Shown: piece by piece, positions 23,264-56,267 of the stretch
Layout of the letters: each line of letters opens with the position of its first letter
Position numbering within the stretch: position 1 is the stretch's first letter
Source: Moniliella sp. 'wahieum'
Taxonomy: Eukaryota
Length of the DNA: 64,000 bases
Reading direction: 5' to 3'
Assembly (NCBI GenBank): GCA_003971905.1
Contig: RSEE01000122.1
Coordinates: forward strand, 1 to 64,000
Notes under the pieces: generated by a model
The model's input: only the letters and a program-made list of their open reading frames with translations
Databases searched by the model: none
What the model was told of the DNA's origin: nothing
Program-made: the position numbers and the translations under genes

Positions 23264-23538
23264 GGAGAGAGCAGGTGGGTGGGGGAGAGGCGGGGGGGGT
23301 GGGATGGAATGCGATCGACACGGGTGCGATCGAATCAGGTGGTGGTGGACGCGGCGCATGTGCTGTGGATCCCCGATAGCCGTTTCACACACACTCGTCC
23401 ACACTTCAAGCTTCAGCGCCTCGCGCCCTGCCGCCGCCCCGTCAGCCGCCTCTTACCTAAGCGGTGCCCCGCCCGCACCACCCACCGGCCGCCTCCCCCC
23501 GCCCCCCCCCCCACCGCCCCCACCACCATCCGCCCCCC

Positions 23539-24469
23539 ATGGCCACCCCCGTGCTGGCCGCTGCCACCCCCTCCGCCCTGCGTCCAACGCCCGCCACAGC
23601 CGACAGCGCCGGCATCGTCACCTTCTTCGCCGCCGATGCCAGTCTGCCATCGACACAAACCGCCGATGCAACGCTCCTCTCGCTCCTCCTCGCCGAGCTC
23701 CCGGCCGCTCTGCGCCAGTCCACCATCGCCGCCTCCGACCGTGTCGCCCATCACACTGACCAGCTCCGAGAGGCTGGCTTCCACCACACCCTCGCAGACC
23801 CACCCGATATGGAGGTGCAGACGCTAGCTCGCCTCGACAAACTCGGCGCCCATGTTGGCGCAAACACGGCTGAGCGGTACGTGACCCTCCCCCCCTTCTT
23901 CCCCACACGCTTACCCTTCCCTCCATGGCAGACTCTGTGCGCTTCGCCCTCCTTTTGGAAGTGTGCTCGAGGTACTCAAGTTTGTCTGCAAGGATATGTG
24001 GATCCACCTCTGGGAACGACAGGTGGATAACTTGCGTACCAACCATCGCGTACGTCCCCCCCTCCCCCTGTCCATGTCCCGCGCTCCCAATTCCTGGTGC
24101 CACTCCTCCTTGCTAACATACATGATCCAGGGTGTGTATGCTCTCCAAGTCAACCAATTTGTCCTCCTCCGCTTTCTCGGCGTCTCCTCTGGCAATGCCT
24201 TTGCCCGTCTCGCTCGGCCCCAACTTGCCTGGGCCGCGGGCGTGGTACGCGGCGCCCTAGGCCGACTCGGCGTGCCAGCTACGGTGACGGTGGATGTACT
24301 TCCTCTCCCTCCGCCCGGCGAAGAAACTGCGCCGCTGGGACACAACAAATTCCTCCCGCCCGTCCTGTTCAATGTCAAGACGTTCCCCTCTCATCCTGCG
24401 CCTGCTCCTACCGTGACCCGCGCCTCTTCCACTGCCACCTCGACACGGCCTTCCGTCCTCTCCCCTTGA
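23539..24469 (+). CDS. TRS33: TRAPP complex subunit Trs33/TRAPPC6; introns ~23877-23930 and ~24049-24130
   Basis: RLDKLGAHVG, LEVLKFVCKDMW..LWERQVDNLRTNHR|GVYALQ, GVVRGALGRLG. Confidence 0.9.
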
Positions 24470-35710: not shown

Positions 35711-37178
35711 CAAGTCGGAACATCACACAAAGGAAGCTACGAGAAGGAGAGTTCCTTAAGCTATTCAGTCCGTCGCCCTTGTGAACCTCGAAGGAACCAT
35801 AGTTGGGTGCCAAAAGCGTCAGTGGCTGAGAAATCTCTGTTGTGACAATGATAGCATTCGCCTAGCTATAGTGCCTTTTTGGAGGGAATAACACTACAGA
35901 GAGCCAATAAAGCGTCCCGTTCAGCCCGACGCGGAGCGGGCAACCTTCTGATTCTTCCCCCGCCACACCGCTTTTCTCTGATCTGCTCGAGTTACTTGTG
36001 CCTTCTATTTGCCAACGCCACGGTTCTCGTTCCACTCGTAACCTCATCCCCGCTCCTGCTATCGTCGATTACTGGTGATTAGCTCGATTAGTCTTCTATC
36101 CCAGAGACTCTCTGGGCACCACAAAGAGTGTCCTGTGTTGTCGCCCTGGATTGCACCCACAACGACGGTGCAAAACACTGCCCCGCATATATATATAGAG
36201 TTGTGGGTTGTAGTGCCCTTTCGGCACACACTGACCGAAGATTAGGGTCCCGAAAATTTATCAGTCCAGTATGGCATATGATCAGGCCGTGGTGAATGTT
36301 AGAATGGGATTATGGCCACAGTTCCTTGAAGGATAAGGTTATGGTCGAGCTGGATAAGATGAAGGCGAAAAAGACGTGACAAATTGACGGGGGCATATAA
36401 TTGTCCTCTCGCCCATTTTTTTGATGGGGAAACGTTATAGCTAGATGCTTGTATATTCAGTGGGGAAGGAGAATATATTACGGAATGATTAATTAACTTA
36501 CCGAAAGATGTCTTCCTTCGAGTAGGAAAGCTGATCCTTCTCATGACATACATAGTATATCTACTACGAGAGGCTCATATATTCGCATCCTTTCCCGCAT
36601 TATTGCATTTGTTGGTTTGGCAACGAGAGAGTAGATGGTCTCGCGTGAACGCGTGAACGTACCGTCAACGAACATCACGAAGGGTCCTGGCTTGCTGGCG
36701 CCCATTTTTCTCCTATTGGGTGGTGACGATCCGACATCAAAGTTCGGACGAGCAAGAGCCTCTTTGTTGGGATATAGGCAGTACTACCCCTCGAGTTAGA
36801 TCAGCTTACTTTTTGGTCTCTCTTGGTGGATCTGCGTCACCAGCTCGCGGGTGGCAGCAATGATCGATGGTAAAGCTCCAAAAACGTGCTTAGGGCAGCT
36901 CTGAGCCGGAAGCGCTAATATATCTAAGGAAACATTGCCTAGGTTGTGGAGTTTATAGACACGTCTCTAGCACAGGAGAGACCAAGTATATTGATCTTCT
37001 CAAGGCTCCCATTTGAGGCGCCTCCTAATTCCGCCCGCTGGGCGGCAGGGCTAAACATTGCACCGATCCAGTCCTAGCACGACCACAAAACAATTTCCTG
37101 CTTGAATTGTCGGAATTGTCGAGGCATTTTCTGCCGTTCTTCTGACCTGGTAGACTGCCACCACTCCGACTGCCCATC

Positions 37179-38098
37179 ATGCCCGCCAAGCCCACGCCAA
37201 CGACATTGTCCTCACCCTTGCCTGCCCCGACCGCAACGGGATCGTGTTTGCCGTCACCGGTTTCCTTGCCCACCGTGGCTTCAATATTATTCAGTCCGAC
37301 CAGTTTGGCGACCCCACCACCACCGTTTCTTCATGCGTGTCCACGCCGCCGGTCTCGACGCCGCCAAGGATGCCGCTGCTCCTGCCGAGGAGGACGACGC
37401 AGCACGCGAAGCACGTTGAAACTCTTCGCGCTCAATTTCCTCTGAGCTCGCCACTGAGTACGCCATGGACTTCCACATTCACCGCGCTGATGCTCGTCCC
37501 CGGACGCTCATCATGGTCAGCAAGATTGGCCACTGCCTCAACGACCTCTCTTCCGTCACAGCACTGGCACCCTCCCAATTGAAATTCCGTTGATTGTTTC
37601 CAACCACACCACGTATCAATCGTTGGCCGAACGGCATGGGATCCCCTTCTACCACTTGCCCATCGACGCCGCCGCTGGCAAGACCAAGGAGTGGCAGGAA
37701 GAGCAGCTGATGCAGCTCGTTAAGCAGTACAATGTTGAACTTGTTGTTCTCGCCCGGTACATGCAGATCCTCAGTGACAAGCTCTGTTTCCGCTCTGTCG
37801 GGCCAAATTATCAACATTCACCACTCTTCCTGCCCTCGTTCAAGGGCGCCAAACCTTACCACCAGGCCTACGAACGCGGGGTCAAGATCATTGGTGCTAC
37901 CGCCCACCTCGTCACTGCCGATCTCGATGAAGGTCCAATTATTGAGCAGGATGTGGAGCGCGTCACTCACGCCGATTCCCCGCCACCTTGGTTCAAATCG
38001 GCGCCGACATTGAGGCCCGCGTACTCAGCCGTGCTGTGCGCTGGATGGCTGAGCACCGCATCCTGCCCAATGGACCCAAGACGGTTGTCTTTGTTTAA
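37179..38098 (+). CDS. purU: Formyltetrahydrofolate deformylase (ACT + formyltransferase domains); apparently intronless, frameshifted
   Basis: GIVFAVTGFLAHRGFNIIQSDQF, LIMVSKIGHCLNDL, IVSNH, VVLARYMQILS, INIHHS.LPSFKGAKPYHQAYERGVKIIGATAH, DLDEGPIIEQDV, ending KTVVFV then stop. Confidence 0.92.
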
Positions 38099-38359
38099 AC
38101 AACCCTTTCCGGCCTCTTTTCCCTAGAACGCGCCTCCCCCCCACCCACCCACCAGTTCACCCCTCATCTTCTAGTGCGTTCAGCATATTGTATTCTGTCC
38201 TGTACCCATCAGGATCACTGCATACATCCCAACCTATTCGTCTACGTCGTTGCAGCTAGTAGTTGTATGGAATAAAAGTCATAATGACAACCCTTGTGGC
38301 TGGTTGACATGGTTACTTTGCCCAGTGTCGAGGTCAAAGTGCCAGTTCAGAGTTGTGGT

Positions 38360-41300
38360 TTACGAGGCGAATAGGGTCAACTGAATGGGACGAACAAGAG
38401 ACTGGTAGAGGTCGAGCCGGACCAGTTCGACCAGCTCGGATGGGGTATCGCGCCACGCAACATAGGCGGCGCCCAGAACAAGTCCAACGCAAAGGAACAT
38501 CATGATCGGGATGAATGGGCGGAATATGCGCTTCGTCACCTGGAGCACAATCGAAATGAAGCCCAGCACGCGGGCAGGCCAACCCAACAACTCCCAGACC
38601 GCACCCGAAGAAAAGGCTGGGCCTGCGGCACCGCCACTCCCACGGAGCCCAGGGGGGCGCATAAATGCCATAAACCAAGTCATCATCTGAGGCGTCTGAC
38701 TTGATCAATTGAATGGCGAGGTCGGCTTCCATTGGGCCCGTTTCCTCCCCAAGCCCATTCCTGAGCCACTTCCACGGCCCGATGGTGCTCTGCAGCGTTC
38801 GAAGTTTCACGGCTGGATGGAGTGGAGGGATATTGATGGTGGTCACATCAACCTCCTCCAAAGTAGTGTCTCCCTCCCCACTCATCTCCGCGATACGCAC
38901 TTCGAGGTTGCAAGAGGGATCCGGCTCAGGAATAGTGTCCGCCTCTGGGGGCGAGATCTTACCATCACCATCAACAATGAAGGTGTCAGGCGCGGGTTCT
39001 TGGAGGGAAATATATGTTGTCCCATCAGACCGTCGAGAGAATGAGGTGGTCACCATCGACGATGGGCTGCTCCTCCCAAACATCTTCTTTGTCCAAGTCT
39101 CCCTCGGGGTCCATCCCGTCCGTCGGTGCCAAAGCCCCCTCTTTCCCCATAGCGGCCAGAGCGGTGCGTAGAAGTTCAAGCTCAGGACCCGTTCCGAAGC
39201 AATGTTGCCGTTGATATCGAGGTAGTGCAGAGCGGGCCATGCACCTTGTTCGATGGTCGCAGCAAGCGTGGTAAGGGAGGCGCCTACGAGTTCACAGAAC
39301 TGAAGTTCCAACCGGGTCAGGTGCGGCGTAGTTCCCTTCGCCAGAGCATCGACAAGCATTTGGCTTCCACGAGGACGCATACGGCATCCGCCCAAACGCA
39401 GCTCCTCCCGTAGCAGGGGCCAAGACTTGAGTGCATTGGCAATCGCCCGTGCACCCCGGAGATTGGCCAAGTTGTCACTCAGGTCAAGAATGGCAAGGTT
39501 CGAGTTGTGCGCAAGGCCCAGGACTAGGTCTTCGAACGCCCTCAATTCAAGCTTGTTTTCTTCCATTTGGATCTCCTCCAGACCGGAGTGAGCTTCAAAC
39601 ACGTTTCGCCACGAAGCCACACCTCCCTCCTCCAGTTTCTGGCCGGAGTAGTGGAGCACTCGCAGCAAAGATCCTCCCGGAGGCTGTGTGGCAGCGCCGC
39701 GCGTGATTGCTTGGGCCACTACACCCCCAGCCTCAGAATCGAGTCCGTTGTTGGACAATTTGAGGGCGTGTAGACTACCTGATTGCTCCAACAGGGGAAC
39801 GAGAGACATGAAGCTGTTCTCATCCAAACCGTTGTTCGACAAGTTTACCTCCTCCAGGGACCCTTGAGCCAACGATGCCAGTACCGGAACCAGCAAGTCA
39901 AGGGAGTCCGTGATGTCGTCTGCCTCGCAGTTGATGAACATGCCCGACAAGTCCATCAACCGCAACTTGGTCTGCGTCTTGAGAAGCTCGGCCAGAACTT
40001 GACACCCGCCTACACCCCACGTGTTCCCTCCCAAGTACACTTCTTCCACCTGAGAGGTCGCAAGGGGTTTGAGGTGAGGCTCAGCTTCGGTAGCCGTAGT
40101 GAGCAACAAGTGGTTGCCTGCAATGCTAAAAATACGCGAAGGACACATATCCTCCGAGGGAAGCTGCTCAACCAGATCCGCGGGTGCCCGGATTTGCGCA
40201 GAGAGAGTGGGCGACTGGGCAGAGCGTGTGGAGGTTGATTGAAATACTTGATCCTCCATGGTTGTGGCGAAATCCACCACCCCCTTGTCCGCCTCGTGTT
40301 TGACGGGTACTTCCACCTCAGTTGCTTCTGCGTTTTTCAGAACGTCATCGTTCGGAATAAACTGCACCACGACAAACGTCAGAATCTGCACAACACAGGA
40401 GATGAAGAAAGCCCACATACCTCTTTTGACAGTTCACCCTGTTCGCTGTCGCTCGACTCGTGCACCGTCGAGCTATCATCGTTGTCGCTCTCAAGATCGT
40501 CTTCTCCCTCCGGGTCCATCTCATCCGTGTCACCAAGCGCATCAGGTCGGCCCAGTGCGGCGAGAACATCGCGCAGCTTTTCAAGCTCGGGACCGTCCTC
40601 TTCAGCAAAGTTCCCATTGACGTCCAACCGCTCCAACGCCAGCTTGTGCAGCGCAATCACCTCGGCCAGCTCGAGAAGAAGACGACCAGGGATGTCGCAT
40701 AAGTCAAGACCCAGGCGGCGGAGCTTTTTGGGGGCGGCATTACGCAGCGCGTCGATAACTAGCCCCGCACCCTCGGGGCGAAGCAGCGTTTCGCTCAGCT
40801 GCAGTTCCTCCAGCTCGGGCCAATTGGCCAGCGCCAGTGCGACTGCACGAGAACCGCGAAGCGTTGCTGTGTTATCTTGCAGATCCACGACCCTCAGCTT
40901 GGGGTTGGCGGCCAAACCGTTGGATACTAGCTGCTCCACGCCCTTCATCCTGATCCCGTTCTGGTGCATTCGGACCACTTCCAGCGTCCCATGAGCAGCC
41001 AGAGCACGGGCAAACGCTGCCGCACTTCCGTCCTCTAACCGGTTGCGGCCAATAATCAGGACTTGAAGCTTGGATTGCTGGTCAGCCTGCTTGGCACGCT
41101 CGGCACTGCGGGCCAAGGCGTCTGCCACGACATTCCCGCCTGCCGGCCCGAGTCCATTATTCTCCAGCTTGAGCACCCGGAGTGAATGGGCCTGCTCCAG
41201 GAGAGGCACCAGGGGAAGAACAGTCCTCTCACCCAACGCGTTGTCGGACAAGTCCACCTCTTCTAATTGGCCGTGGGGGGGCACGATGCGCGCCAGCGCC

Positions 41301-43065
41301 GAGCAAATCGCCTTCAGGGCGAGAGGGATCTCAGTGATCATTCGTCCCGTGAACAGATCGTCCAGCCAGGCTGATCTGAGTGTTGTGATCGTAGCCAGTG
41401 TGTCGGCGAAGGCCTCGGCGGCCTCGACTCCCATCGTGTTCCCACCCATGACCACTTGCTCAACGCCGACCTGGGCGCGCAAGGCACACAGATACGGCTC
41501 GATGTCGCTTGCCGTTTCGAGACGAAGACCTTTGCCTTGAATGGAGAAAATCTGGTTGGGCTGGACCGAAGATGCTTCGTCCCCATTTTCATCGGGGACG
41601 GGGATATCATGGGGTATGGCATCGGGGGCATCATCCACTTCGTCAATCGTAGACTTCTCCTCTCTGTCCTCCTCGGGGTTTACCTCGGTCTCCTTTTCGA
41701 TCGCCTCCGGGTTCTCCTCGACCACCTCCGGGTTCTCCTCGACCACCTCCGGGTTCTCCTCGACTTCCTCCGGGTTCTCCTCGACTTCCTCCGGGTTCTC
41801 CTCGATCGCCTCTGAGTTCTCCTCGATCGCCTCTGTTTCGTCCTCAATCGCCTGCGTTGTTTCCTCGATCGCCTCCATTTTGTCCTCGATCGTCTTGGCC
41901 CCCTCGTCCTGGACCACGACCTCGTCCGGAGCATCACTTAGATCATCATCTGAAATATCGGACAAAGGTGTCTCATCCACCTCTGTAACATCCACCAATG
42001 CGCTTCCCAGGCCTTGCGCTTCCAGTGCTTGACGCAATGCCTCAATCTCTGGCCCTTCCCCATCCACCAAGTTGCTGTTCACGTCCAGATGAGTGAGACG
42101 GGGCCAAGGATTGGAGGCGATCAGGTGGGATAAAGCCATAATGTTTGCCGGGCTGAGCTCACAACAACTCAACCCGATCTGGGTGAGGATGCATGCCGTT
42201 CGACCAACAGCGCGTCCATCAAGAGCTGACCTCCTTTAGGCCGAAGAAGTGTATCAGTCAAGTGGAGCTCCTCGAGATTGGGCCAGAATCGGAGACACTC
42301 AGCAACAGCCTTGGCACCGCGTAAGGTGGCAGTGTTGTCACCAAGGTCGAGAATGCGCAAATGGGGGTTCTTGGCCAGACCCGAGCGCACGATCACCTCA
42401 AATCCTTGCATGCGGATCCCGTTCTGTGCCATACGCACTTCTTGCAAGGTGCCGTGCGCGGCGAGCGCACGCGCCCAGTTCAATGCGCTGCCATCCTCCA
42501 GCCGATTGCGCCCGCATTCAAGCACCTGCAACTGAGACGACTCGCCTTGGGCAGCAGCTTTCTGGGCGCCACGGGCCAACGCATCAGCCACAACGATGCC
42601 TGCCTCGGGCCCCAGACCATTGTTGTTAAGCCTGAGAACACGGAGGCCGTTGGCAGCCTCGAGGAGAGGGACGAGCGGCGAGCATACACGTTCGCCAAAT
42701 GCATTGTCGGACAAGTTGACCTGTTCCAGTGCCCCGCCAGGGGGCACGAGGCTGGCGAGGGCAGTGCAGAGCGCAGTGAGCGCGCCGGGGATCTCGTCGA
42801 TGCTGCGGCTGGTAAAGATGTTGGACAGGTCAATGGAGCGGAGAGAGGTACAGGTGGCGAGAACCGTAGCGAGCGCCTGGGCGGCAGGGACGCCGATGGT
42901 GTTGTCGCTGAGGCGCACCTCGTCGACAGCGCCGCGCTGGGCCAGCTCTGCGAGCTCGGCGGCATACGTGGCTGCATCCTCAGCGGAATCGAGGGTGAGG
43001 CCGCGGCCAGCAAGCGAGAAGATGCGCGGGGCGCTCTCGGCGTCACTCTCAGCGGCGTCAGACAT
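38360..43065 (-). CDS. RNA1: Ran GTPase-activating protein (Rna1/RanGAP1 family) with three tandem LRR + acidic-tail units and a probable C-terminal transmembrane segment; intron 40362-40420
   Basis: Units start IFSLAGRGLTL, IFSIQGKGLRL and IFSIAGNHLLL. Units 1-2 have IFTSR/LFTGR, LSDNA(F/L)G, NNGLGP, GRNRLEDG, QNGIR and L(G/Q)DNT. Units are joined through an indel site (~42180) and a phase-0 GT-AG intron. Confidence 0.85.
41690..41890 (-). repeat. Coding 21-bp tandem repeat (E-A/V/E-I/V-E-E-N-P) in the linker between RanGAP units 1 and 2
   Basis: EAIEENS-EAIEENP-EEVEENP-EEVEENP-EVVEENP-EVVEENP-EAIEKET. Confidence 0.9.
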
Positions 43066-43220
43066 GAGCAGCGCGTGCGTGGCGGTGGAGGCAGCAGCGC
43101 ACGGCGGGGCTTCGATCGGCGCCTGAAGCAGCCTCAGGCCTCAGGCCGGAGGCCGCGCGAGGACGCTAAGAAAAACCGCAGATTTTAATCAGGCAGCTCG
43201 CGAGTGTGTTGGCTTGTTAA

Positions 43221-46060
43221 TTACGTTAATTGTCCTCTGTCTGTCTGTCCGCCATCGCGTCCATCCCGACGGGGATCGTGGCAAGAATAGATTACGCAAA
43301 AGCTACGCCTCGTCTGGATCTGAATACGTCGTGCGGTCACGCAGCCGCGCACGCCGCAGCCCGCCACGCCAGGCCCAGCCCGAGCCAGCTCGTGAGGCGG
43401 CCTCGTTGGACGAGGTTGCCGCTGGTGGTTGTGCGCTCTCGTCGCCCGACGCGGCGCTTCGACCGACAGCAACAGAGCAGACGCAGCACCAGCACCAGCA
43501 GCACTAGCACCAGCACCAGATGCCGACGGAGCAGCAGAAGAAACACCCACCGTCTCTTCGTCTTCCCTCTGTGGTAGCAGGCTGCTTCCTACTGGAGCAC
43601 TCGTGGTATCCACGCTCCGTACTGGCACGCCAACGCTCGGCTCAGTTGAGCCCGCTGCCTGAGGGGGCTCGGACGTCGTGGGCGCTGCCATGGCCGTGGC
43701 TGCGGCGGGAGGAGAAGGGGACGGTGGCCGAGATGGCGAGATAGGGGCCGCTTCTTCCGCAACTTCAGATTGTGCTTCAGGGTGCGAATCGCGACGAGCG
43801 AGTTGACGTTCGCGCTCCAGTCGCTCGGCCCGTAATCGTCGGGCGGCCCATTCGGCCCGGCGCTCTTCGTCTCGGGCCAGCAGGTCCAACTGCGCGTTAA
43901 TCCACTCCTCGTCCGATGCGGCCTCTGAACGCGCCCCATTCCCATCCCCAACGGAACGTAAACGCGTAGACCTGCCAGGAGGCGGTGTTGCTGGCGGCAA
44001 TGTGTAGTCCTCCTCCCGATGTCCTGCTGCGTCGCCTCGTCGCTCGTGGCGAGACCGGTGCCGGTGTCTCCTATGTCGTCGAGAGGAGGTGTGGGTGTGC
44101 TCTCGAGGGTGCGGACGCGAGTGGGAGAGAGAGGTCCGTTGGCTGTGAAACGACACCATGTCTGGTAACGAGTTTGCCTCCTCGTCCTCCTCTCCATCCT
44201 CGTCATCCTCGTTATCTGACCGGGGCGGGTGGTGGCGCTGTTGTCGCTTTTGCAGCACTTGGTCCCGCAATGCAGTCTGATGCGTCGCAGCGCTCCGAGC
44301 GGCAGCAAAGTGCGCCACTCGTAGTCGACGGAACCGATCGGTAAAGAAGGTGGCTGGAGGCAGTGCAGAGCGGGCATGCCGCGCCGCTTGGAACAACGTA
44401 TCTGCTCTGCTCTCGCTGTGGAACTCGTAGCCGGGAGGGGGCGTCGTAACACTCTCCTCTCTCCAGGCTACGTCCGATGGAGGAATGCTCCCCGGCAAAG
44501 AGATGCGGCGTTGGCTGAGCGATGCTCTTGGCCCATCCACCTGTGCCATTTCCTCGTCCTCGGGGGCAGCAGGATTGGGTGGTACTGGTTGATCCGTTTC
44601 AGGTGATGGAATGCCATCTACTTCGGTCACAGACGGGTGCGTGGGGCGAAGACTGGAACGAGTCGAATGGGGACGTGAAGCAACGGACGCCATGGCTGGT
44701 CTGGACACCAAAGAGGAGGCACGAGATGGGTGCCGGCGTGGCCGGAGCGAGGCGGAGGGACGGCGGGAGTTACTCGATAGATGGGATGAGATGCGAGCCA
44801 ATGACGAGTCGGGCTGAGCAAGGCTGTCACGAGCGTGTGAGCCATCGTGTTCATCGCTGGCCATGCCATCAACCGGTCCATCTTGAGCCGCAGAGCGCAG
44901 TTGGGCCTTGCGCGCTGCTCGCTTGGCCGATCGCATTTCCCGATCTTCCACTTCTCCAATGCCCATCCCAGCCCCGACCCACCACCAAAAGCCAAGCCAG
45001 GACTGCCAAACGGTCAATGTCCAGCCAATCTGGGGAAGCCACCACAAACGATCCCACTTGATTCCGAGAAAATTCAGCAACGCCGTAATAAAGGCGAGAC
45101 CGCTAGCGCCCATGCCAAAAATGGCCGTGCCCCCATCCGTGCGCCAGGCACGGCGTCGGTTGACAAGCAAGCCCCAAATCAGCAGGGCGCAGAGGTACAG
45201 TAGCGAAAGTGTACTGTTGCAGATGTTTCGAAATGCATCGCCCAGATCGAGTGCCTTTTCATCGTCAGGCGGCGCCATGTCAGTAAAGAGCAGCGCCGCT
45301 GCGCAGAAAGCAAGCGGGCCAAGCATCCAAAGGATGAGGCGGCGCTCAAGGTTGGATGGATAAAGGAGGGTGAGGAACTGAATGTGGGTGGTGTGTACAG
45401 CAAGGGTGAGGATGGCCTGGAGCACGGTGTAGCAGGCAACCTGGGCATCGGACCATTCTCCCGTCGGCGGCGGGATCTCCATGTTGATGTAGGGAAACAT
45501 GTATGGGTACTTGTACGAGCGCTCCGCCGCGGTCCACAGCAGCACGCCCACGTCGCATGCCACGTCGACCACGAGACAGAAACAGGAGAATGCCTGCATG
45601 CAGAAGTTGATTTTGGAAAGGGGGTAGTGGTAGCGACCAGTAAAGGCGAGATGAAATCCAAGCATGACCGCCAGGGACAGGCTGATGCCACCGAGCAGCA
45701 CCTGCACGGGCATGCTCCAGATGAAGTCGGGCATCAGCGCGAGGAGGGGATCGTTGGGGTCATTTGGATCAAGCGTTGGCCGAGGCTGGCCGTCATAGTC
45801 GGATACGGTGGTGGGGAGACTGGCGAGTTGTTGCGAGGGGAGAGAGAGGGCGTGGGGGTGGGGGAAGGAGTGGCCGAGACGGCGAGCAGGGCGATGGCGA
45901 GGATGGCGATGACCGTGATGCGCGTGCAGCGGACGCGGCCAGCGCGCATACTGAGGGGTGAGGGCGTTGGGATTGACACTGGTGGCGGTGGTGATGGTGG
46001 TGGTCGAGTTGGCGTTGGGCCAGCGGCTGGAGGAGGCGGTGCGATGCGGCGAACAGCCAT
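43221..46060 (-). CDS. PalH/Rim21-type multi-pass membrane pH sensor (basidiomycete Rra1-like) with a long charged C-terminal tail; both ends uncertain
   Basis: Hydrophobic N-terminal segment in the adjacent frame (ITVIAILAIALLAVSA), about 7 hydrophobic segments, HLAFTGRYHYPL, HIQFLTLLYPSNLERRLI, VNRRRAWRTDGGTAIFG, WLGFWWWVGAGMGIGEVED. Confidence 0.65.
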
Positions 46061-47095
46061 CACACATCACACATCCCAATCACACACCCTCGATCCTAGC
46101 CTCTGTGCTTAGGTAATATGCAATACAGCCCCCGTGCGGCGATTTACCCCACCGTTGCCACCCGTATTCATCACGTCGACATCACAACCTTCGCCTATGC
46201 GATCAGGAAGACAGTACACCCACACCTGATTATGGGTGGTTCGACCACATCTCGATTAACCCTCGGCAAACGATACCGACGGCGATGATCTGACCCAAGG
46301 GGAGCTCCATATCCGCCCTGAAGATGGGCAGGTCCATGTCAATACAAGGGTAGGTCAGTGCAAGTCATTGATACTTTGTCTCCTGGGCACAAATACAAGT
46401 CGAAAACCGGATCGCGGAGGCCTTGGGACAAAGAGTAACTAACTAAACTGCGTGGCTAGTATACAGTCGACTATGAGTATCTCCTCAGCGCCTCAGCGAA
46501 GGATACGGCCGATTTTTGAGCATTGTGGTCTTATTACGCTTTTCTTGCTTTCAGTATGCTGTGAAGCTGATTATGAGAGAACGAAAGAGCAGAACGAGCA
46601 CAACCCGGAGGCGCTTGCACTCACCTTTGCTCAGGGAGATGGAACCCAGAGGCTTGTTGTGCGTGGTGGGGGACTTGGGTACCACAGGACACCGTTACTA
46701 TAGCTTTCTCAGACTTAAATTCCTTTCACTTCAGCTGCCACTGCAATGGGGGGGGCATTTTGCCAGGTCAGCCGTGTGTTGAGTAGTAAGTAGACCAGCA
46801 GGGGGGGGGGCGGATCTCACCCCCCCGCGTACCCACTGCCCGATCAAGACCTAGTTCCACTTAGTACCCCACTTCTGTTCATCTACTATCCCATCCTTTC
46901 CCGGGGAAACACGCAAGACACTTCAATTCAATACAGGGCAGTTCCAGGTCCAGTTTGAGGTGCAGGCCCAGACTCAGGTACAGGTGTAAGTAGGTGCAGG
47001 TACCTGCCCACATCCACACTTCACTTCTCCGTAAGTTCTTTTTTTTTTTACCCCCCTTCCTTTCTTCACCGCTTCTGACAGAAACAACCTGAGCC

Positions 47096-50000
47096 TCACG
47101 CGCCAAACGGCGGTTCCTGGCCCGGATGGGCAAAGCTCAAATTGGGCGTGCTGGGCTGGGTAACGCCCGGGGTAGCCCCCGGGGTACGCATCCAGCGACT
47201 GCCCAACGACATGCCTCCCATGGCAAATGGGTTGTCGGGGGGAACGGCAGGGGTACTTGCGTCCCAAGCCCCCCCAAACCCAGGTGGGAGGAACGAGGAC
47301 CAGAACGTTTCGCTCAGCAACTGTTCACTTGGTTCGTCTTCTTCCCGTGCGCCTGGCATGAGCGGGAAACCGAGTGTAAATTGCGCCGCTTCCGCCGGCT
47401 GCATCGTCGGACTGGCAGCGCGCGAGGCGAGCCGCGAAGCAGGTCGGGTAGGCGGACGCGAATGCAATTGCGCTTGCGATTGCGATTGGGCAGCGACCAG
47501 GGCAGCGACAATGCTATTGACGTGGGCGCCCGTGGTGCGTTTGGTGCTGTGGGGCGTGTGGGGCGAGGCGGCGCGGGAACGGTGGGGCGTAGTAGCGTTG
47601 GACACCGACGGCTGGGTACGGTCCGAGTGACTTTGCACGAGCATACGAAGAAAGGTGGCGTAGAGGTAAGGCGTGTGGGTCGGTCCAACAGCGAGCGATT
47701 GGAGAAAGTTGGCCGTGTGGCTGACCAACCGGAGCAAGTGCGCTTCGTCGCTGTACGCGGCAAACGCCGGCTGGAGCAACTTGAGCAAAAACACACACGC
47801 ATATGCCACCATGACAAACTGGCTGTCGGGCGCGTAGCGCAAGTCGCGGCCCAACAGACACGCCGCTTTGATGATCCCCTTGGCCGCATGCAGACAACGC
47901 GAATAGTACGTCGGCGTGTCGAGGCCCGTGCTGGTTGGGTGGTCCAGAGCATGTTGCAGCCCAAACGAGTTGAGCAACAGGACGGCATAGTGGTACCGTA
48001 CCGGACCTTGGCGGATCAGAAAGTAGAGCGCCCGCTGGATGTAATCGGCATTCTCGGGGGCGAATCCGCCTCCACATCCGGTTCCTCCCCCAACAGACGC
48101 AGGATCAACCTTTCCTCCCCGATCCGATTCTCCGACTCGGTCGGCTCTTGCTCTGGGCCAGGCTCTCGCTCTTGCTCGTGCCCAGGTTCCCGCTCGTGTT
48201 CCTGCTCGGGCAAGTGCTCGTGCTCTTGCTCGTGCTCCTCTCCATGCTGGGGCTCGTGCTGGGGCTCATGTTCATGTTCATGCTCAGGCTCAGGCTCATG
48301 TTCACGTTCATGTTCACGTTCATGTTCATGCTTATGCTCATGTTCATCTTTATGCTCATGTTCATGTTCATGTTCATGCTCGTGCTCATGGCCTTGACCT
48401 GAATCTTGGCCTTGCCCGCTTCCCGACGCGTTCTGGGCCGGTGTACTACGTTCCCCCTCGGCCGGCATGGGCGCCGTGCGCTCGACGCCAGCTGGGGTTG
48501 GTTCCTTGGTTGGTTCCGCAGCAGCGTGGCGCAGAGCACGATAATGCTGCATCAAATCATCAAAGCGCCAGACCTCCTTCCACTCTTCCAGCTGCTGGTT
48601 AAAGATCTTGAGCACGGACGGGTAATCAATATCGAGGTGCAAGCCCGACACGGACGTGGTAGAAGAATAGAGAAAGTCCATTTGACGCGACTGGATTCGC
48701 TGCAACTCCACCAGCCCCGAGATTCCCACGTCCCAAGGGCGCGAGTGGCGTTGCATGCACCACGGACGCGAGTTGCGAATCAGCCAGTCTTCCCGCACAC
48801 TGTACGCCTTGCCCATCTGCGCGGCAAACCCACGGTCGATGGTAAAGCACACGTACCACGTACGTTCGCGGTTCAGCAGTTCCCGTTCTCGCTCTGCATC
48901 GTCCTCTTGCGGGCCCATGGCTTTGCGGTCCAGGTTCAAGTCCGTGGCCATGCGAATGGCCAAGCCCGAGAACATCCACGCCGTATCTTGCTCAAACTTG
49001 GCCGACGGCTCGCCCCACAACGACAACAACAAGAAGGCCTGCACAATTTCCACCGATTTGAACCCGTGTTCGAGCGAGACAAAGGCGCATTGCTTGGCGT
49101 ACTTGAGAGCTTGCGCATGTAGCTCGGGCCGCGCAGCATAGAAGCGCGACGCAACCGCCAAGATGGCCGTGAAGAGGAATGGAGACCGGGCACAGACAAA
49201 GGTAGGTGTGTGCCAGTCCGGGTCGAGCAAAAAGGCATACTGCATGCAATGCACAAAGAAAATCCGAAACAGTTCCACCACCTCCTCACTGTCCACCACC
49301 CCATCTTGCAAAATCTCGGGCGGCATCTCCCGTTCAATCGCAATCTGACGCAAGGGCAGAATGGAGATGGCCGACGGCTTAAAGTACGTCGAATTGGCCA
49401 CGCCCAATGGGATCTCCTCGTCCCCAGCCAGAGAGGGCACCACATCGGGACCCGCACCGCCCGACGCGGCCGCAGCAGCGGCAGCAGCAGCGGTAGACGC
49501 GCTGTAGCTTGGCGAATTGCTCGGCCCATCCGACACGCTGGCGGGAGGGTTGCTGTCCATGCGCGTGGCCGAGGTGCCACGGTGCTTGCGACGGGACCGC
49601 TGGGCGTTGTGCAGACTGGCCTCGGCCAAGAGCCCTAGTGGGTTGAGCGTGTTGTCGGGTAACGCATGCAGACGTGGCGACGTGGTGCGCGAGTGGTTGT
49701 CCCGGCCCTTGCGTGAGGGGGCGGGTTGGTACGGCTTGAGGCGGTCCTTGAGGCTCGCTCGCCGATCCACGCTGTCCCCGCCGTTGGAGCCGGCCGATTG
49801 GCCCGAGGTATTGGACAGCACCGAATCGCCGCCATTGGTAGAGGGGGAGTGGAGGTGGGGCATGGGCTCGGCAAAGCGCAAGTCGGGGTGGCGGGTGGTC
49901 GTGCCCGAGCGCGGACGCTTCTGCATCGTCGAAGTCAAGGTGGGCCGGGGCACAAATGCCGGTGGAGCAAAGTCGGTGGGCGCCGGGGGGGCAGGTTCAG

Positions 50001-50854
50001 TCAGCGCCGGATCAACGGGAGGCCACGACGCGGGCGGCGGTGGGCCGGTGGCCGCCGCTGCAGCCGCAGCCGCTGCTGCCGCCGCCGCCGCCGCGGCTGG
50101 GTCGACGAGGTTGGACAGACCCGGCGGCGGGGGCGGCTGGAGCTGCTGCTGGAGCGGCTGCTGCTGGGTCTGCTGCGGCGGCTGGGGCTGGTGCGTGGGC
50201 GGCTGCGGCTGCGGCTGCGGCTGCGGCGGGAAGAGGCCGGGCGGGGGCATGTGCTGCAGCTGGCTCAGCACGTGCGGGGGCAGGGTGGTGTTGGAGGAGT
50301 GGAGGGACTGGAGGACGGTGGCCAGCGTCTGCTCCATCTTCTGCAGCGACGCGGCCATGGCCTCGGTGCGCTGGCTCTTGGTGCCCTTGCGGCGGCGGTT
50401 GGACTCTTCAAACACACACGCATGGTTCGACGCCTTGCAGCGCACACAGGGCGGGCCGTCCTCGGCGCCGAGGCAGCGCATCTTGAGGCGGCGGCAGTGG
50501 AGGCAGGCGCGCTGGGAGCGCTTCTGCTTGGCGGGCTTGTCCTTGGCGGCGGCCTTGGAGGCGGAGGGGCTGGGCTTGGATTGGAGGCGGGGGCGCTTGC
50601 TGCGCGGCGCGGCGTCGGGCGCGGCGGCGGCATCGGGGGGGCAGCGGCGGCGGCGGCGTCGCGTGGCTGGGCGCGAGCGAGTCCGAGTCGGAGGCGGAGG
50701 CGGAGTCGGAGTCGGAGCCGGACGCGGAGCCGGACGCGGAGGCGAGCGGGGAGCAGCGGCAGGCAGCGGCAGCGGCAGCGATGCGCCGGTGCGTGCTGGC
50801 GGCGGCCAGGCCCACGACGGGCCGGCTGGGCCGGAGGTGTGGGGGGAAGGACAT
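47096..50854 (-). CDS. Zn(II)2Cys6 transcription factor with a fungal-specific TF (middle homology) domain, PriB-like
   Basis: RACLHCRRLKMRCLGAEDGPPCVRCKASNHACVF; RSPFLFTAILAVASRFY, KSVEIVQAFLLL, GLAIRMATDLNL, NRERTW..CF..DR; C-terminal LRYAPDSQFVMVAYACVFLLKL. Confidence 0.9.
48140..48390 (-). repeat. Coding His-Glu dipeptide repeat (CATGAA/CAYGAG)n inside the transcription factor
   Basis: GHEHEHEHEHEHKDEHEHKHEHEREHEREHEPEPEHEHEHEPQHEPQHGEEHEQEHEHL. Confidence 0.9.
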
Positions 50855-51076
50855 GGTGGGTGCACTCCGGTTCGTGCTGTGGCCCGGGGGCCGGATGGCC
50901 GGAGCGGCGGCGCCCCCGCGCGCCTGCTGACGTCAGCCCTGCTCACGTCAGCGTCTCGTCCGGGCCAGTCCGGGCCACATGATCGAGGATCGGTGGCCCG
51001 AGTCCCGCCGCACCGGCACGACGCTGAACATTTGACAACGCGACACGCCGCGCACAGACACGCGCAGCCATACGAG

Positions 51077-51148
51077 TCACGCGTCACGCGTCACTCCGCC
51101 AGACCCAGGGACGCGTCGCGGACGGCGGCTGGAGAGCACACGCGCGTT
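51077..51148. promoter_or_regulatory. Cluster of MCB-like ACGCGT/CGCG elements upstream of MSH6(-ECO1), in a divergent promoter
   Basis: TCACGCGTCACGCGTCA (51077-51093), GACGCGTCGCG (~51110), ACACGCGCGT (~51139). Confidence 0.5.
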
Positions 51149-51215: not shown

Positions 51216-54200
51216 ATGGGCAAGCAGAGCTCCCTCTTCGGCTTCTTTGCCGCCGCCAAGGCGCCTCCTCCCCCCGCCGCCGCCCCCGCCGGCACCAACG
51301 CGGAGTCCAACGCGGAGACCCAGGCGGAGGCCAACGCGCAGACTCCAGCGGAGACCAAGACCCAGACCAAAGCTAGTGCCAAGGCCAAGGCTAACACCAA
51401 GGCCAAGACCAGCACCAAGGCCAAGACCAACACCAAGACCAGTCGCGCCGCCCCTGCCCAATCCAAGCCCACTCCCAAGCCCACTCCCAAGCCCACTCCC
51501 AAGCCCACTCCCAAGCCCACTCCCACCCCCCTCGACCGGTCCAACTCCCCCCCCGGTCCAACCGACGAGATGGACATTGACGCGTCTTCCCCCCCGCCGC
51601 TTTCCGCCACCGCCACCGCCGCGACCACGACCGCGTCGCCCCCCTCCCCACCCACGCCCATCCCACCGCTGCCCACCGCTGCTTCCCCCGCCGCGTCAGA
51701 GGAAGACATTCCTGGTGTCGTACGTACCTCCCCTCCTCACGTTGTGCTCGCTTGCTCCCGTGCCGTCTAACATGCCCTACTTAGCGTCGCACCCGTCGTC
51801 GCGTGATCAATTATGTCGAGTCGGACGCGTCCGACTCGGACGATGCCCCGGCGCCCAAGCGGGCCAAACTGGCGCGCGGCCGGACGCGCCGTGCGCGGTC
51901 GGAATCGGAAGAAGACGACTTTGCTCCGTCGGACAGTAGCGCCAGTGACAATGAGAGCGAGATGGCTTCGGCTTCGGCTTCAGCGTCGGAAGCCGAGTCG
52001 GCATCGTCCGAACCGGAATCCGAACTGGAATTCTCCACTGCCATCACCAAGAAGAAGGGTAAGGGTAAGGGAAAGAGCACACTGTCTGCTGCGCGACCGC
52101 AGTCACGCTCGCGCGTTCCTCCCTCTGAAGCGGGTAGACCGAGTGGGTCGCCGCCACGCGAGGCAGGGCGGACAGTGGTAGTCAAGGGAAAAGCGAACGA
52201 CCAACCGTTTGCCTTTCTCCATCCTCCGCGCGACAAGGACGGCAATGTGCGTGGTTCGGCGGCGTACGATCCGCGTACGCTGCTCATCCCCGCGTCGGCC
52301 TGGACGAGCATGACGCCGTTTGAGCGGCAATTTTGGCAATTGAAGCAGGACCGGTTTGATACCGTCTTGTTTATTCAAAAGGGCAACTTTTACGAACTGT
52401 ACGAGGACGATGCTACGCTAGGCCACCAAGTGCTCGATCTCAAGTTGGTCGATGCGCCCAAGATGCGCATGGTGGGCGTACCGGAAAAAAGTTACGAAGG
52501 GTTTGCAGCCAAACTGCTCGGCTTGGGATACAAGGTGGGCAGGGTAGACCAGGACGAGACGGGCGTCGGACGCGATGTCCGCACAGCCCAAGTCAAGGGC
52601 AAAACCATTGTCCAGCGCACCCTGCGCCATGTGTTGACCAGTGGCACGATTGTCGAACCGTCAGCATTGCAAGATGATTTGAACAGCTACTGTCTTGCCA
52701 TCTGCCAAGCGCCGCAGGGCAGCGGCATCGGTGTCTGTACTCTGGATGCGGCCACGGCCGAGTTCCGTTTGGCCAGCCTTCCGGACGAGGCGGGGCTGGA
52801 ACTACTGCTCCGCTCGTTCCGGATCAAGGAGGTGTTGTTGGAAAAGGGGCGGAGCGAGGCCACCCTGCGTTTGGTCCGCGCTTGTCTCCCGCCTTCGGCC
52901 CAACTGATTCAACTTACCAGCGGAGACGAGTTCCCTTCCCCCGCCATGGCCAGCGAGGTCCTGCGCACATTTTTCCCCGATGCGCTTCCCGCCGGGGTAC
53001 GCGACACGGTGCAGGCGGATACGCCCGAGCCTCTGGCCGCACTGGGTGCGATGCTTTTGTACCTCCGTACGCTCAATTTGGACCAGGACTTGCTGGCGAG
53101 TGACAACTTTGGTCCGCTGCTATGGCAAGGTGATCGGATGGAGTTGGATGCCCAGACGTTGACTCACCTCAACATCTTGACCAACGACCAGGGTACCGAC
53201 GAAGGCACGTTGCATGCGTTGCTCAACCACTGCCAATTGCCCTGGGGCAAGCGGCTGCTGCGGCATTGGCTCTTGCATCCGCTTCGGGACATTGGCCAGC
53301 TCAACCAGCGCCTGGACGCCGTGCAAGATTTGTTGATGGACGATGATTTCCACCAGGCCTGGGCCACGTTCGCACGCACGTTGCCCGATGTGGAACGGGT
53401 GGTAGCGCGCATCCGTGCTGGGCGGGCCAAGCCACGGGAATTTGTTGCGTTGCTCGAAGCGTTGGGCGGAGTGGACGAGGCGGTGGAGCAATTGCGCACG
53501 TACGTACAGGACCACCATGGTACCCATGCCATCGAACGCATCTTGGCTTCCATCCCCTCCTTGGCACAGGTCGTGCTTCCCCTGCGCGACCAATTTACTA
53601 TTGCGCCTGACCTGGGCTTTGATCCGGTCCCCGGCACCGACGATGCGTATGACCAAGCTCAGGCTCACCTTGCCACGCTCGAAGAGGAACTGGACACGTT
53701 ACTCGACACGATTGCCAGCGAACTCAAGTTGGCCCGGACCAAGGTGCAGTACCGCCATAGTGGGACCAAGGAGATTTACCAGGTCGAAGTGCCGCGCAGC
53801 ACCAAGGTCCCTCCCAACTGGATCCTCCTGGGCCAGACCAAGGACAAAGCGCGTCACTACCCGCCCGCGGTCAAGCAACGTGTCCAAGCGTTGCAGCATG
53901 CGAGGGAAGCTCGCTTGGCCAGCCTCACGCAGTTCCGACTGCGCTTGTTTGACCAACTCGCCACCTTGGCCCCGACCATCCTGCTGGCTGCCACCCACTT
54001 GGGCCAAGTCGACTGTCTCGTCTCCTTGGCAAGGGCCAGCGACGCAATGGGCTCAACCGTACGACCCACCCTGGTCCAATCGGACGAAGCGCTGGTGGAG
54101 CTGACGCAGGTACGTCACCCCACCCTTGCTACCAAGAGCACCTTTGTGCCCAACGACGTCTCCCTTGGTGGGAAGGCGGAAGATGTGATGCTTCTCACGG

Positions 54201-55080
54201 GCGGCAATATGGCCGGTAAGTCCACCTTGGCCCGCACCGCCGCCACCGCCGTTCTGCTCGCTCAAATCGGTTGCTTTGTCCCGGCTGAAAAGGCCGTCGT
54301 GGCGCCTGTGGACCGGATCGCGTCCCGAATGGGCGCAAACGACCAACTCTTCCACCGCCAGTCTACCTTTATGGTCGAGATGATGGAGGCTTCTCGGGTA
54401 CGTTTTGTTTCGCTCCCCTGGGAAATTTGGTTCTGTCACATGGATTGGCTTGGGGCTATGTCCTGCTCTTGTGGCCCGGGCACGCAAGACAGACACGCTG
54501 ATGGCTGGCTTACTGACAACACTCTTTGGTTACTTGTTTTGATGGTTTGGTGGGGGGGTGGAACGGATAGATTGTGGCACAAAGCACGCCGCGTTCGTTG
54601 GTCATTCTGGATGAGTTGGGACGCGGGACATCGACGTACGATGGCCAAGCGATTGCCTATGCCGTGCTGCACCACCTCTTGGCGCGCACGCGATGCCGAG
54701 GTTTCTTTTTGACGCACTATGCTGCGCTCGCACGCGCGTTTGCTTCGTACCCGCGCGTCGCTAACCGACACATGCGCGTGCTGGTCGAGCCAGGGCAGGA
54801 CGACGTGGCGTTCACCTACCAGTTGGTCCCGGGCATTGCTCAAGCTAGTTACGGTACCCAAGTTGCTCGTCTGGCCGGAGTGGATCGCTCGATCACCCAC
54901 CATGCCCACCAGGTCAGCACCCAGTTCCAACGTGCCTCTGAACCCGACACGCACACGCCCAACCCCGTTCAGGCCTGCACCCTCTCCGACTTTGCCTTTC
55001 TTGTGCGCCTGGCTACCGAGGGCGAGCCGGCGTGCGTCGCACAGCTCGATCTCGTCCGACAAGCTGTCCTCGCCGCTCCC
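51216..55080 (+). CDS. MSH6: DNA mismatch repair protein Msh6 (MutS-alpha); introns 51720-51784 and 54398-54570; no stop codon, reads on into ECO1
   Basis: PIP box QSSLFGFF, YDPRTLLIP, KGNFYELYEDDA (Phe-X-Glu), Walker A TGGNMAGKST, QSTFMVEM, Walker B SLVILDELGRGTSTYDG, THY, SYGTQVARLAGV; both introns are phase 0 and restore the frame. Confidence 0.95.
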
Positions 55081-56267
55081 GCCTCGTCCTGCCGGCCTGA
55101 GCACGTCGAAGCAGAGTGCCGCTCGCCTGTCTCCCTGCGGGAGGAACACCGAGTCGACGCCCAGGACGATAAGGACAACGACAACGCCATGGATAACGAC
55201 AAGGGCAACGACAAGGACGCGAGTCATTTGTTGCCTGCGCACGCCTCGTCGGCTCGCACGACCGACGAAGATGAGGACATGGCTGTATCCGAGCCCGAGT
55301 CCGTGTCGGCGTCCGTCTCCTCGCCTCAGACGCAAGGCGAAGAGATGCGGGCCTGGTCGCCGGGCACGGCGGACGAAGAAGAGGTGCGTGCGTCGTCGCC
55401 TCCCACGTCGCCTGTGGCCGGGGAGCGAGGCACGCGCAATCCGCTGCTGACTGCGGCGGGGGGTAAGGCGCGAGCACAGACCAAGAGCCGGACCCGAACC
55501 CGACCGGCGACGCAATCGCTCCTCCTGGCGCCTGGGACCAAGACGTGCAAGGAGTGTGGCATGGCGTACGACGCGGTGAACAAGCAAGACGCGGCGCTGC
55601 ACCAGGCCTTCCATACACGCATGACGCAGGGCCTGCGCTGGCCCGCGCGCTGGGCTGCCGCCGCCGAGGCGCAAGCGGCGGACGCAGGGCCCGACACGAC
55701 CATCCTGGTTTACCCGCTCAAGATGGGCGGCGAGGTGGGCAAGGCGGTGGGGGAGGTGGTGGCGATGATGGACGAGGGCGGGCGCGGCCGGTGGCGGAGG
55801 AGGTGCGGTGCGGGGGGAAGGTGCTGGTGGCGCGGCGTGCTGGGCGGGTGGTGGGGGCGGCGCTGGTGGCGCCGGTGGCGGAGGGCGCGGCGCGGGAGGT
55901 GGTGATGCGTGCGGGCGAGGCGGGGGCAGCGGCCGAGGCGGCGCTGGAGGCGGTGCTGGTCGACCGCACGGCGCGGCGGTGTGGGGCGGCGGTGGGGGTG
56001 CACCGGATCTACGTCGTGGCGGGTGCGCGTGGGCAGGGGCTGGGGCAGCGGCTGCTGGATGCGGCGCTGGCACACGGCGTGTATGGCCAGACGGCGGCCC
56101 AGACGCTGGCCCAGGCAGGCTCCCATGCGCGCGCGCTCGCCTTCTCCCAGCCGACGGCCGCGGGGCGCCGCCTGGCCCAGCGCTGGATCGCCGCCCACGC
56201 CGCCGCGCTCCCGCCGGCCGACGCCGCGGCCGAGCGGCGGACGCTGCTCGTGCTGAGCGAGGAGTAG
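55081..56267 (+). CDS. ECO1: Eco1/ESCO cohesin acetyltransferase moiety (linker, C2H2 finger, GNAT domain), in frame with MSH6; one indel at ~55780
   Basis: TQSLLL..KTCKECGMAY....QDAALHQAFH; KAVGEVVAMMD; KVLVA..GRVVGAALVA; VGVHRIYVVAGARGQGLGQRLLDAA...YG; LAFSQPTAAGRRLA. Confidence 0.88.

Follow-up and report, generated by a model that had tools for sequence, protein, structure and literature searches.

How many catalytic modules can a single gene for the GTPase-activating protein (GAP) of Ran carry? To our knowledge, RanGAP in the organisms studied so far consists of one catalytic domain and a lineage-specific targeting part. The question is raised by a minus-strand locus in a 64,000-nucleotide (nt) stretch of contig RSEE01000122.1 of Moniliella sp. 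'wahieum' (positions 1 to 64,000; hereafter the window), where a first-pass annotation had described three complete RanGAP units forming one gene. We find three units homologous to RanGAP, the first two of which occur fused in the same order in related fungi. The locus probably represents one RNA1-type gene of ~1,550 amino acids (aa), in which two GAP modules would be competent and one a pseudo-GAP, with a hydrophobic stretch at the C-terminus.

Detection of three RanGAP units

The window is eukaryotic, with a GC content of 52-72% per 2 kb. Between 43140 and 38334 its minus strand carries three long stop-to-stop open reading frames (ORFs) in differing frames (42169..43140, 40379..42235, and 38334..40433). 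A Pfam search (E<=0.01) returned generic leucine-rich repeat (LRR) families for the first two ORFs only and no family for the ORFs of unit 3 and the tail. Because Pfam was uninformative, the PDB and a purpose-built hidden Markov model (HMM) were used instead; the HMM has 397 columns, was built from 106 single-domain fungal RanGAPs, and was run on a read-through of the locus with an X at each break in the reading frame. It detected three end-to-end RanGAP domains almost exactly where the first-pass annotation had placed its units (Table 1). To count all three units as complete, however, one has to read through two 1-nt frame breaks.

Each unit also matched Rna1p of Schizosaccharomyces pombe (PDB 1k5d_C), the frame -2 part of unit 1 with E 2.6e-52, unit 2 with E 4.4e-62 over chain residues 4-373, and unit 3 with E 1e-37. 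Human RanGAP1 was likewise matched by each of them (E 9.7e-57 for unit 2). Because every unit matches both Rna1p and human RanGAP1 in the PDB, the three are genuine RanGAP homologues. An acidic stretch follows directly after each LRR domain, namely ...DETPLSDISDDDLSDAPDE plus E-rich repeats in unit 1, ...DTDEMDPEGEDDLESDNDD in unit 2, and a shorter one, ...TDGMDPEGDLDKEDVWEE, in unit 3. A tblastn search with unit 2 against the 64,000-nt window gave five high-scoring segment pairs (HSPs), every one in the RanGAP locus and one of them the match of unit 2 to itself, and no RanGAP-like HSP beyond it. The HSPs of unit 1 ran in frame -2 at 43026-42208 (60% identity) and then in frame -1 at 42187-41975, and those of unit 3 in frame -3 at 40142-39192 (43% identity) and then in frame -2 at 39243-39085.

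Pairwise identities among the units are 53.9%, 43.7%, and 44.7% over ~345 aligned profile columns. An assembly echo was considered and is ruled out, since the units are only 44-54% identical, and the earlier view of the units as old and diverged is borne out.

The ORF at 40379..42235 takes in the C-terminal part of unit 1, with its final repeats and acidic tail, together with the acidic linker and the whole of unit 2. The tandem array within the linker has a period of 21 nt (7 aa, EAIEENP-type), 9.3 copies and 83% matches. The first-pass statement that unit 1 runs into unit 2 in one ORF through an acidic repeat linker is correct for this portion, but the start of unit 1 lies in another frame. 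With the same arrangement found in relatives, the fusion of units 1 and 2 is highly probable.

Relatives and history of the units

The order unit 1, linker, unit 2 is found in one ORF in four contig-encoded proteins of related species, P0121 (952 aa), P0122 (731 aa), P0123 (679 aa), and P0001 (591 aa), and also in the NCBI protein P0124. The closest relative is P0121, which is 65% identical unit for unit and shares the N-terminus; its residues 1-299 align from 43065 with 69.7% identity. In a tree of 47 units (IQ-TREE quick mode, with support from the Shimodaira-Hasegawa-like approximate likelihood ratio test, SH-aLRT), window unit 1 paired with unit 1 of P0121 (SH-aLRT 99) and window unit 2 with unit 2 of P0121 (99). 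These pairs lie within a u1 clade (support 90) and a u2 clade (94) of five rows each, so the duplication predates these five species. The whole 11-row group (SH-aLRT 99) is nested among Ustilaginomycotina RanGAPs, beside Tilletiaria anomala and P0124, a placement that would fit descent from an ordinary RNA1 gene of an Exobasidiomycetes-like fungus. Unit 3 is basal in the 11-row group on a very long branch (1.79). Its grouping with all five u2 units gave p 0.12 and was not rejected. A recent derivation of unit 3 from window unit 2 was rejected (approximately unbiased test, p-AU 0.011).

Proteins with several RanGAP units are also found in Tilletia. P0125 (Tilletia caries, 1828 aa) has two units, and P0161, a Tilletia-like fragment, has three, of which two are truncated where the fragment ends. 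Units within Tilletia share 95.7% identity and cluster by species, so the duplication there was recent or independent, or its copies have been homogenised. The Tilletia entries of this kind, P0125 among them, carry only the labels 'unnamed protein product' or 'VWFA domain-containing protein'. Outside the smut clade, P0160 (1094 aa) has three RanGAP domains that are 96.5% alike and P0167 (793 aa) has two diverged ones, in one ORF each; unless these two result from merged gene models or assembly, multi-domain RanGAPs recur in distant lineages. The architecture is already present in public protein sets, including the deposited protein of Tilletia caries. The first-pass annotation had named its being common in annotated relatives as a finding that would speak against novelty, and this is partly borne out, with the multi-unit P0125, P0124, and P0161 already deposited. 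Full-text literature searches returned no paper whose listing or abstract describes tandem or multiple RanGAP domains. Several species share the fused form with two GAP modules, to which a third, degenerate module is sometimes added.

Two observations on the relatives concern the gene family more broadly. The linker of P0121 includes, at residues ~425-470, a further and degenerate copy of the last part of a RanGAP unit (...ELSFNGNLAREDGSEPEALRVALDTL...), so partial duplications also occurred in this family. The models of P0122, P0124, P0131, and P0134 start or break just before ...VADFADIFTGRL, a place where the three units of the window are uninterrupted; this suggests a conserved intron before VADFADIFTGRL that is mis-handled in some Ustilaginomycotina gene models.

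Conservation of Ran-facing residues

A family-invariant set was defined as the 84 columns with at least 95% conservation across the 106 single-unit proteins. Of these columns, 71 are kept in unit 1, 73 in unit 2, and 44 in unit 3, compared with a minimum of 73 and a median of 83 among the single-unit proteins. In units 1 and 2 the DxFTGR Arg, the SDNAFG Asp, the two Arg of GRNRLE, QNGIR, and the Asp of DLxDNT are all preserved, with a D>N change in the DxFTGR motif of unit 1 as an exception. Because the Ran-facing residues are kept, units 1 and 2 are each predicted to stimulate GTP hydrolysis on Ran in the usual manner of Rna1p, an activity that in RanGAPs is enhanced by RanBP1.

Unit 3 reads GMFINC, SNNGLD, SGQKLE, and ENKLEL in place of DxFTGR, SDNAFG, GRNRLE, and QNGI, respectively. 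The Arg of DxFTGR is replaced by Cys, the Asp of SDNAFG by Asn, GRNRLE by SGQKLE, and QNGI by ENKL; DLxDN still has its Asp and FCE its Glu. Unit 3 keeps 23 of 27 conserved Leu/Asn positions vs. 3 of the 17 conserved D/E/R/Q/T positions (p 1.7e-5 by Fisher's test, the residue classes having been picked after the data were seen). A preprint on human RanGAP1 lists the Ran contacts D86, D121, D245, D273, and E304, suggests that R191 may be an arginine finger, and equates R189/R191 with yeast R182/R184 (10.64898/2026.04.28.721414). Mapped through the alignment to 9b62_G with an assumed four-residue offset in chain numbering, unit 3 lacks D86, D121, R189, R191, and D273 and keeps D245 and E304. The pattern reads as the signature of a folded LRR domain freed from the need for a Ran interface, and unit 3 may thus be folded but non-catalytic and serve in structure, regulation or targeting. 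A trivalent RanGAP is unlikely with most Ran-contact residues lost from unit 3; two competent modules and one degenerate module fit better.

Frame breaks in the locus and in neighboring genes

The locus is not one clean reading frame: 1-nt breaks in unit 1 (42190/42187) and unit 3 (39192/39189) had been overlooked. At the break in unit 1, frame -2 passes into frame -1 with 20 nt for seven aligned residues, which leaves no room for an intron. The break appeared in the alignments of seven of nine relatives tested, and the other two gave no frame -1 HSP there. P0121 has ...TRHASLARLGL... where the window has ...ERHAS in one frame and LTQIGL in the next, which is equivalent to a 1-nt deletion, tcc(c)tc. 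We listed all GT/GC...AG pairs of 20-600 nt that keep the frame open; the nearby pairs, of 26-59 nt, have non-consensus donors and would delete a part of an LRR that P0121 keeps. With no credible intron, a 1-nt insertion or deletion (indel) is preferred at this position. If the deposited sequence is read literally, translation from the ATG at 43065 ends at the frame -2 stop at 42169-42171. At the break in unit 3, frame -3 passes into frame -2, with ...IASE followed by GPELE... as if one G were missing, cgg(g)gt. Each of the two breaks looks like the loss of 1 nt from a short run of C or G, and the tail past unit 3 has two further frame changes, one or both of them breaks of this kind.

Breaks of the same kind occur in conserved neighbors. 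A purU-like formyltetrahydrofolate deformylase gene on the plus strand (ACT and Formyl_trans_N domains, ~37178-38098) has at least seven frame changes in ~0.9 kb, which fall inside invariant motifs and without intron-sized gaps. For example, ...ILSDKLC lies in one frame, LSGQIINIHHS in another, and FLPSFKGAKPYHQ in the first frame again. The frame-2 ORF of this gene aligns to residues 113-255 of 3lou_A with a mismatched patch exactly at the ILSDKLC/LSGQIINIHHS motif, and a 40-aa frame-1 piece, which overlaps the frame-2 ORF in the DNA, aligns to residues 249-286 of 3obi_A. The purU-like gene is the clearest sign of many small assembly indels, a young pseudogene being less likely. A UBR1-like N-recognin gene on the minus strand (~17100-23400; zf-UBR, ClpS-like, and PRT6_C domains) is made up of many overlapping ORFs; the UBR box is divided over two frames at ~22715, again without a gap, and PRT6_C extends across three overlapping ORFs. 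Because the purU-like gene and the UBR box are broken in a like manner, the four frame breaks of the RanGAP locus are most likely small indel errors of the assembly and not biology. The window illustrates how indel-rich assemblies can hide or break multi-unit genes. A frame-switch count over the whole window (seven-state codon-usage Viterbi, 76 direct same-strand switches in 37 kb) was set aside, as it confuses short introns with indels and flips strands.

Proposed joining of units 2 and 3, and the C-terminal tail

The 59-nt stretch at 40420-40362 reads as an intron just as first annotated (GTATGT...CTGAC...GTGCAG) and its removal joins ...SKE to FIPN... in frame. It sits in the ~40-nt overlap of two ORFs in the right phase, and if it were retained, translation would stop at 40379-40381. 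Like signals (GTACGT, CTGAC) are present in the intron of a MutS-family (MSH) gene in the same window. Past unit 3, the codon-usage signal runs on to the stop codon at 38360-38362 via frames -2, -3, and -1. The change from frame -2 to -3 could reflect another indel or else a second short intron, for which 39053-38999 (55 nt) is a candidate, and the change from frame -3 to -1 occurs at a C6 run near 38655. Provided that the gene reaches this stop codon, the total length of ~1,500 aa estimated earlier is reasonable.

The tail contains the motif FSSGAVWELLG at 38614-38582 and a 21-residue hydrophobic segment at 38515-38453. The long RanGAPs of Ustilaginomycotina (Tilletiaria, Meira, Jaminaea, Sympodiomycopsis, Testicularia, and Tilletia) have a long low-complexity tail that ends, at the extreme C-terminus, in ...DLSxELY...(20-40 aa)...F..[AF]GA[IV].EL[LM]. 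A possible counterpart in the window is ...SDDDLVYGIY... with FSSGAVWELLG 16 residues on, and the latter aligns with the extreme C-termini FSLGAVKELLG of Tilletiaria and FGAVWELM of a Tilletia-like protein. The best matches of the motif in BLASTP were the last 20 residues of P0180 (the Tilletia-like protein; E 0.04) and residues 772-782 of P0126 (Tilletiaria, 787 aa; E 0.058). The protein of the window runs 73 residues past the motif, where its relatives end. The hydrophobic segment, which lies in error-prone sequence, might act as a membrane anchor.

Proposed gene and rival explanations

We propose that the locus is the RNA1/RanGAP gene of a smut-related fungus (Ustilaginomycotina, Exobasidiomycetes-like), which would start with the minus-strand ATG at 43065 and end with the stop codon at 38360-38362. 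The catalytic module, an LRR crescent with its acidic tail, would have been duplicated within the gene to give three modules in one polypeptide of ~1,550 aa, joined by the acidic repeat linker and by a 74-aa linker that follows the 59-nt intron. The duplication giving units 1 and 2 would be older than the split from at least four related species. Units 1 and 2 would have kept their Ran-facing residues and stimulate GTP hydrolysis on Ran, and unit 3 would have kept the LRR scaffold with its conserved polar Ran-interface residues replaced, leaving a non-catalytic module. The gene would end with the C-terminal motif of the long Ustilaginomycotina RanGAPs followed by the hydrophobic segment, a possible membrane tether. 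The layout of unit, unit, unit, and tail is what domain duplication within one gene would give, and a single gene spanning all three units is, from these signals, reasonably likely.

Several results weigh against parts of this proposal. That units 2 and 3 lie on one mRNA is predicted from sequence signals. The intron pattern GT[AG]NGT..CT[AG]A[CT]..[CT]AG occurs 25 times in the window vs. 28 +/- 4.4 times in shuffled sequence and is not enriched; because shuffled sequence shows as many, the motif carries no weight by itself, and its weight comes from position and phase. In P0122, P0123, and P0001 the ORF ends 4 to 6 codons past a shared S-K-[A/E]-V position and the unspliced frame of the window stops 13 codons past the same position, so a two-unit protein could end there. 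Among 2132 matches (E<=0.001) from 1.84 billion representative proteins, no unit 3 orthologue was found, none being closer than P0121 (44% identity) and P0001 (42%). The matches of the tail motif are weak (E 0.04 and 0.058). For the hydrophobic C-terminus, a word-indexed search of proteins of 62-200 aa gave 27 candidates, none with E<=0.01, and the ESM Atlas gave no usable match. The search for further RanGAP copies covered the window, and a separate canonical RNA1 may lie elsewhere in the genome. Long clean stretches occur as well, such as the 975-aa ORF of the MSH gene, which runs in a single frame through MutS domains I-IV into the first part of domain V; indel errors are thus uneven and some frameshifts may be real.

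The main rival explanation is an arrangement of two adjoining genes, in which a two-unit RanGAP would end at 40379-40381 and a second gene, starting from an ATG between 40360 and 40140, would encode unit 3 and the tail. We consider this arrangement unlikely. P0122, P0123, and P0001 do stop likewise a few codons past the shared S-K-A-V, but the Val codon after S-K-A in the relatives (GTN) is compatible with a splice donor at the same place, and in the window a well-formed intron with an in-phase join lies exactly at the ORF overlap. Methionines are present upstream of unit 3 (...ATTMEDQ..., ...SEDMCPS...) and could serve as starts; against them stand the openness of frame -3 throughout from 40433 and a distance of only ~120 nt from the stop to the first ATG. 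Short intergenic distances may nonetheless occur in this genome, as the upstream ORF ends only ~155 nt before the ATG at 43065. The lack of a relative with a unit 3 orthologue also agrees with two genes, whereas what looks like the lineage's C-terminal motif stands after unit 3 and not after unit 2, as expected from duplication within one gene.

If the frameshifts were real, the locus would be a decaying array in which unit 1 is cut after ~298 aa and unit 3 is disabled, and functional RanGAP would come from another locus or from translation of unit 2 by itself. The deposited frame -2 does stop at 42169-42171, unit 3 does shift frame, and some long ORFs in the window are clean, so that errors are not everywhere; yet apart from the single-base frame changes the units have no in-frame stops, and the same breaks riddle the conserved neighbors (purU, UBR box), which sequencing error fits better than several adjoining pseudogenes. 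Unit 3 has lost 39 of the 84 invariant residues by our tally of losses (the count kept being 44), but the losses concentrate in polar surface positions with the scaffold Leu/Asn retained, which is not a pattern of neutral decay, and units 1 and 2 keep 71 and 73 of the 84 columns. Decay is on balance improbable. Sd-RanGAP of the Drosophila Segregation Distorter system, a truncated, mislocalised, separate gene copy, is a meiotic driver, and the first-pass annotation raised a comparable role here, a selfish RanGAP duplicate distorting the Ran gradient in nuclear competition. Beyond that analogy we found no support for it, and such a role would be very improbable. The architecture of units 1 and 2 is common to several species and multi-unit forms exist in Tilletia and in distant lineages, which points to a stable lineage feature; the units fall within the ordinary Ustilaginomycotina RanGAP clade, and the N-terminus and a tail resembling that of the lineage are both present, with no truncation of the Sd type.

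A single RNA1-type gene with two competent modules and one degenerate module is thus the reading we retain. It is quite unlikely that the housekeeping RanGAP of this lineage is as a whole a protein of ~1,550 aa with two active GAP modules, a Ran-blind non-catalytic LRR module, and a C-terminal transmembrane-type anchor. If true, this would be the first conserved multivalent RanGAP, and a third independent way to concentrate RanGAP on the cytoplasmic face of the nuclear envelope or endoplasmic reticulum, after SUMO-RanBP2 in animals and WPP in plants. The locus raises the questions of valency in the disassembly of export complexes, of the role of a pseudo-GAP module, and of whether a fungus anchors its RanGAP.

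Features of the window

The coordinates of the locus and of other genes are given in Table 1. Directly upstream of the RanGAP gene, the minus strand carries a 952-aa ORF (43221-46079) with hydrophobic segments and no Pfam match. The MSH gene (51785-56264, plus strand) has an intron of ~175 nt (GTACGT...CTGAC...ATAG, ~54397-54571) inside MutS_V. The stop-to-stop ORF at 54571-55902 holds the end of MutS_V and the zinc finger of an ESCO/Eco1-type acetyltransferase, the catalytic domain of which lies at 55467-56264. The presence of MSH and ESCO/Eco1-type sequence in one ORF reflects either a stop codon hidden by an indel or abutting genes.

Table 1. Features of the RanGAP locus and other gene-like ORFs in the window.
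Feature	Position	Strand	Remarks
Start codon (MSDAAESDAES...)	43063..43065	-	Read from sequence; coincides with start of P0121
RanGAP unit 1, LRR domain and acidic tail	41930..43029	-	HMM positions 4-361, 382 bits
Acidic linker between units 1 and 2 (124 aa)	41558..41929	-	21-nt tandem array at 41697-41892
RanGAP unit 2, intact, frame -1, with acidic tail	40433..41557	-	HMM positions 4-374, 446.5 bits
Candidate 59-nt intron, GTATGT...CTGAC...CAG	40362..40420	-	Joins frame -1 to frame -3, SKE to FIPN
74-aa linker exon between intron and unit 3	40140..40361	-	Frame -3 open from 40433
RanGAP-like unit 3, diverged, probable pseudo-GAP LRR domain and short acidic tail	39070..40139	-	HMM positions 4-359, 255.6 bits
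C-terminal tail, apparently coding in frames -2, -3, -1 successively	38363..39069	-	Three-frame reading, codon log-likelihood scan, intron enumeration
Stop codon	38360-38362	-	
TRAPP subunit	23885-24466	+	
Fungal-specific transcription factor	48019-51090	-	
Msb1/Mug8-domain protein	57390-59159	+	
Cdc73 C-terminal domain	61662-62561	-	

Comparison with known systems

Each unit of the window spans nearly the whole ribonuclease-inhibitor-type LRR domain of Rna1p from S. pombe and Saccharomyces cerevisiae (PDB 1yrg, 1k5d) and is followed, like it, by an acidic stretch; units 1 and 2 also keep its DxFTGR, SDNAFG, GRNRLE, QNGIR, and DLxDNT motifs. Rna1p is a single domain of ~385 aa, whereas the window has three domains in one apparent gene, the third without most of the motif residues, and adds a long tail with a hydrophobic end. 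The two-unit relatives P0121, P0122, P0123, P0001, and P0124 have unit 1, linker, and unit 2 in one ORF as the window does, but no third unit was seen in them and their ORFs end just past the acidic tail of unit 2. The Tilletia proteins P0125 and P0161 resemble the window in having several units in one ORF, acidic linkers, and a C-terminal ...FGAV.EL.. motif that appears to be shared. They differ in an N-terminal VWFA region and in units that are 95.7% identical, in contrast to the 44-54% identity and the old split of units 1 and 2 in the window.

Metazoan RanGAP1, with its SUMO-attachment domain, and plant RanGAP, with its WPP domain, each combine one GAP core with a lineage-specific addition for the nuclear envelope. 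They have neither repeated GAP domains nor a hydrophobic membrane-type segment, and no similarity to the SUMO-attachment or WPP parts was seen in the window. For human RanGAP1, a preprint describes positioning at the nuclear envelope by the added part (10.64898/2026.04.28.721414). By analogy, the hydrophobic C-terminus encoded in the window could be a targeting part comparable to the SUMO and WPP additions. Sd-RanGAP and the locus described here are both duplications involving a RanGAP gene. Unlike Sd-RanGAP, the duplication in the window is internal, untruncated once the frame breaks are read through, and common to several species.

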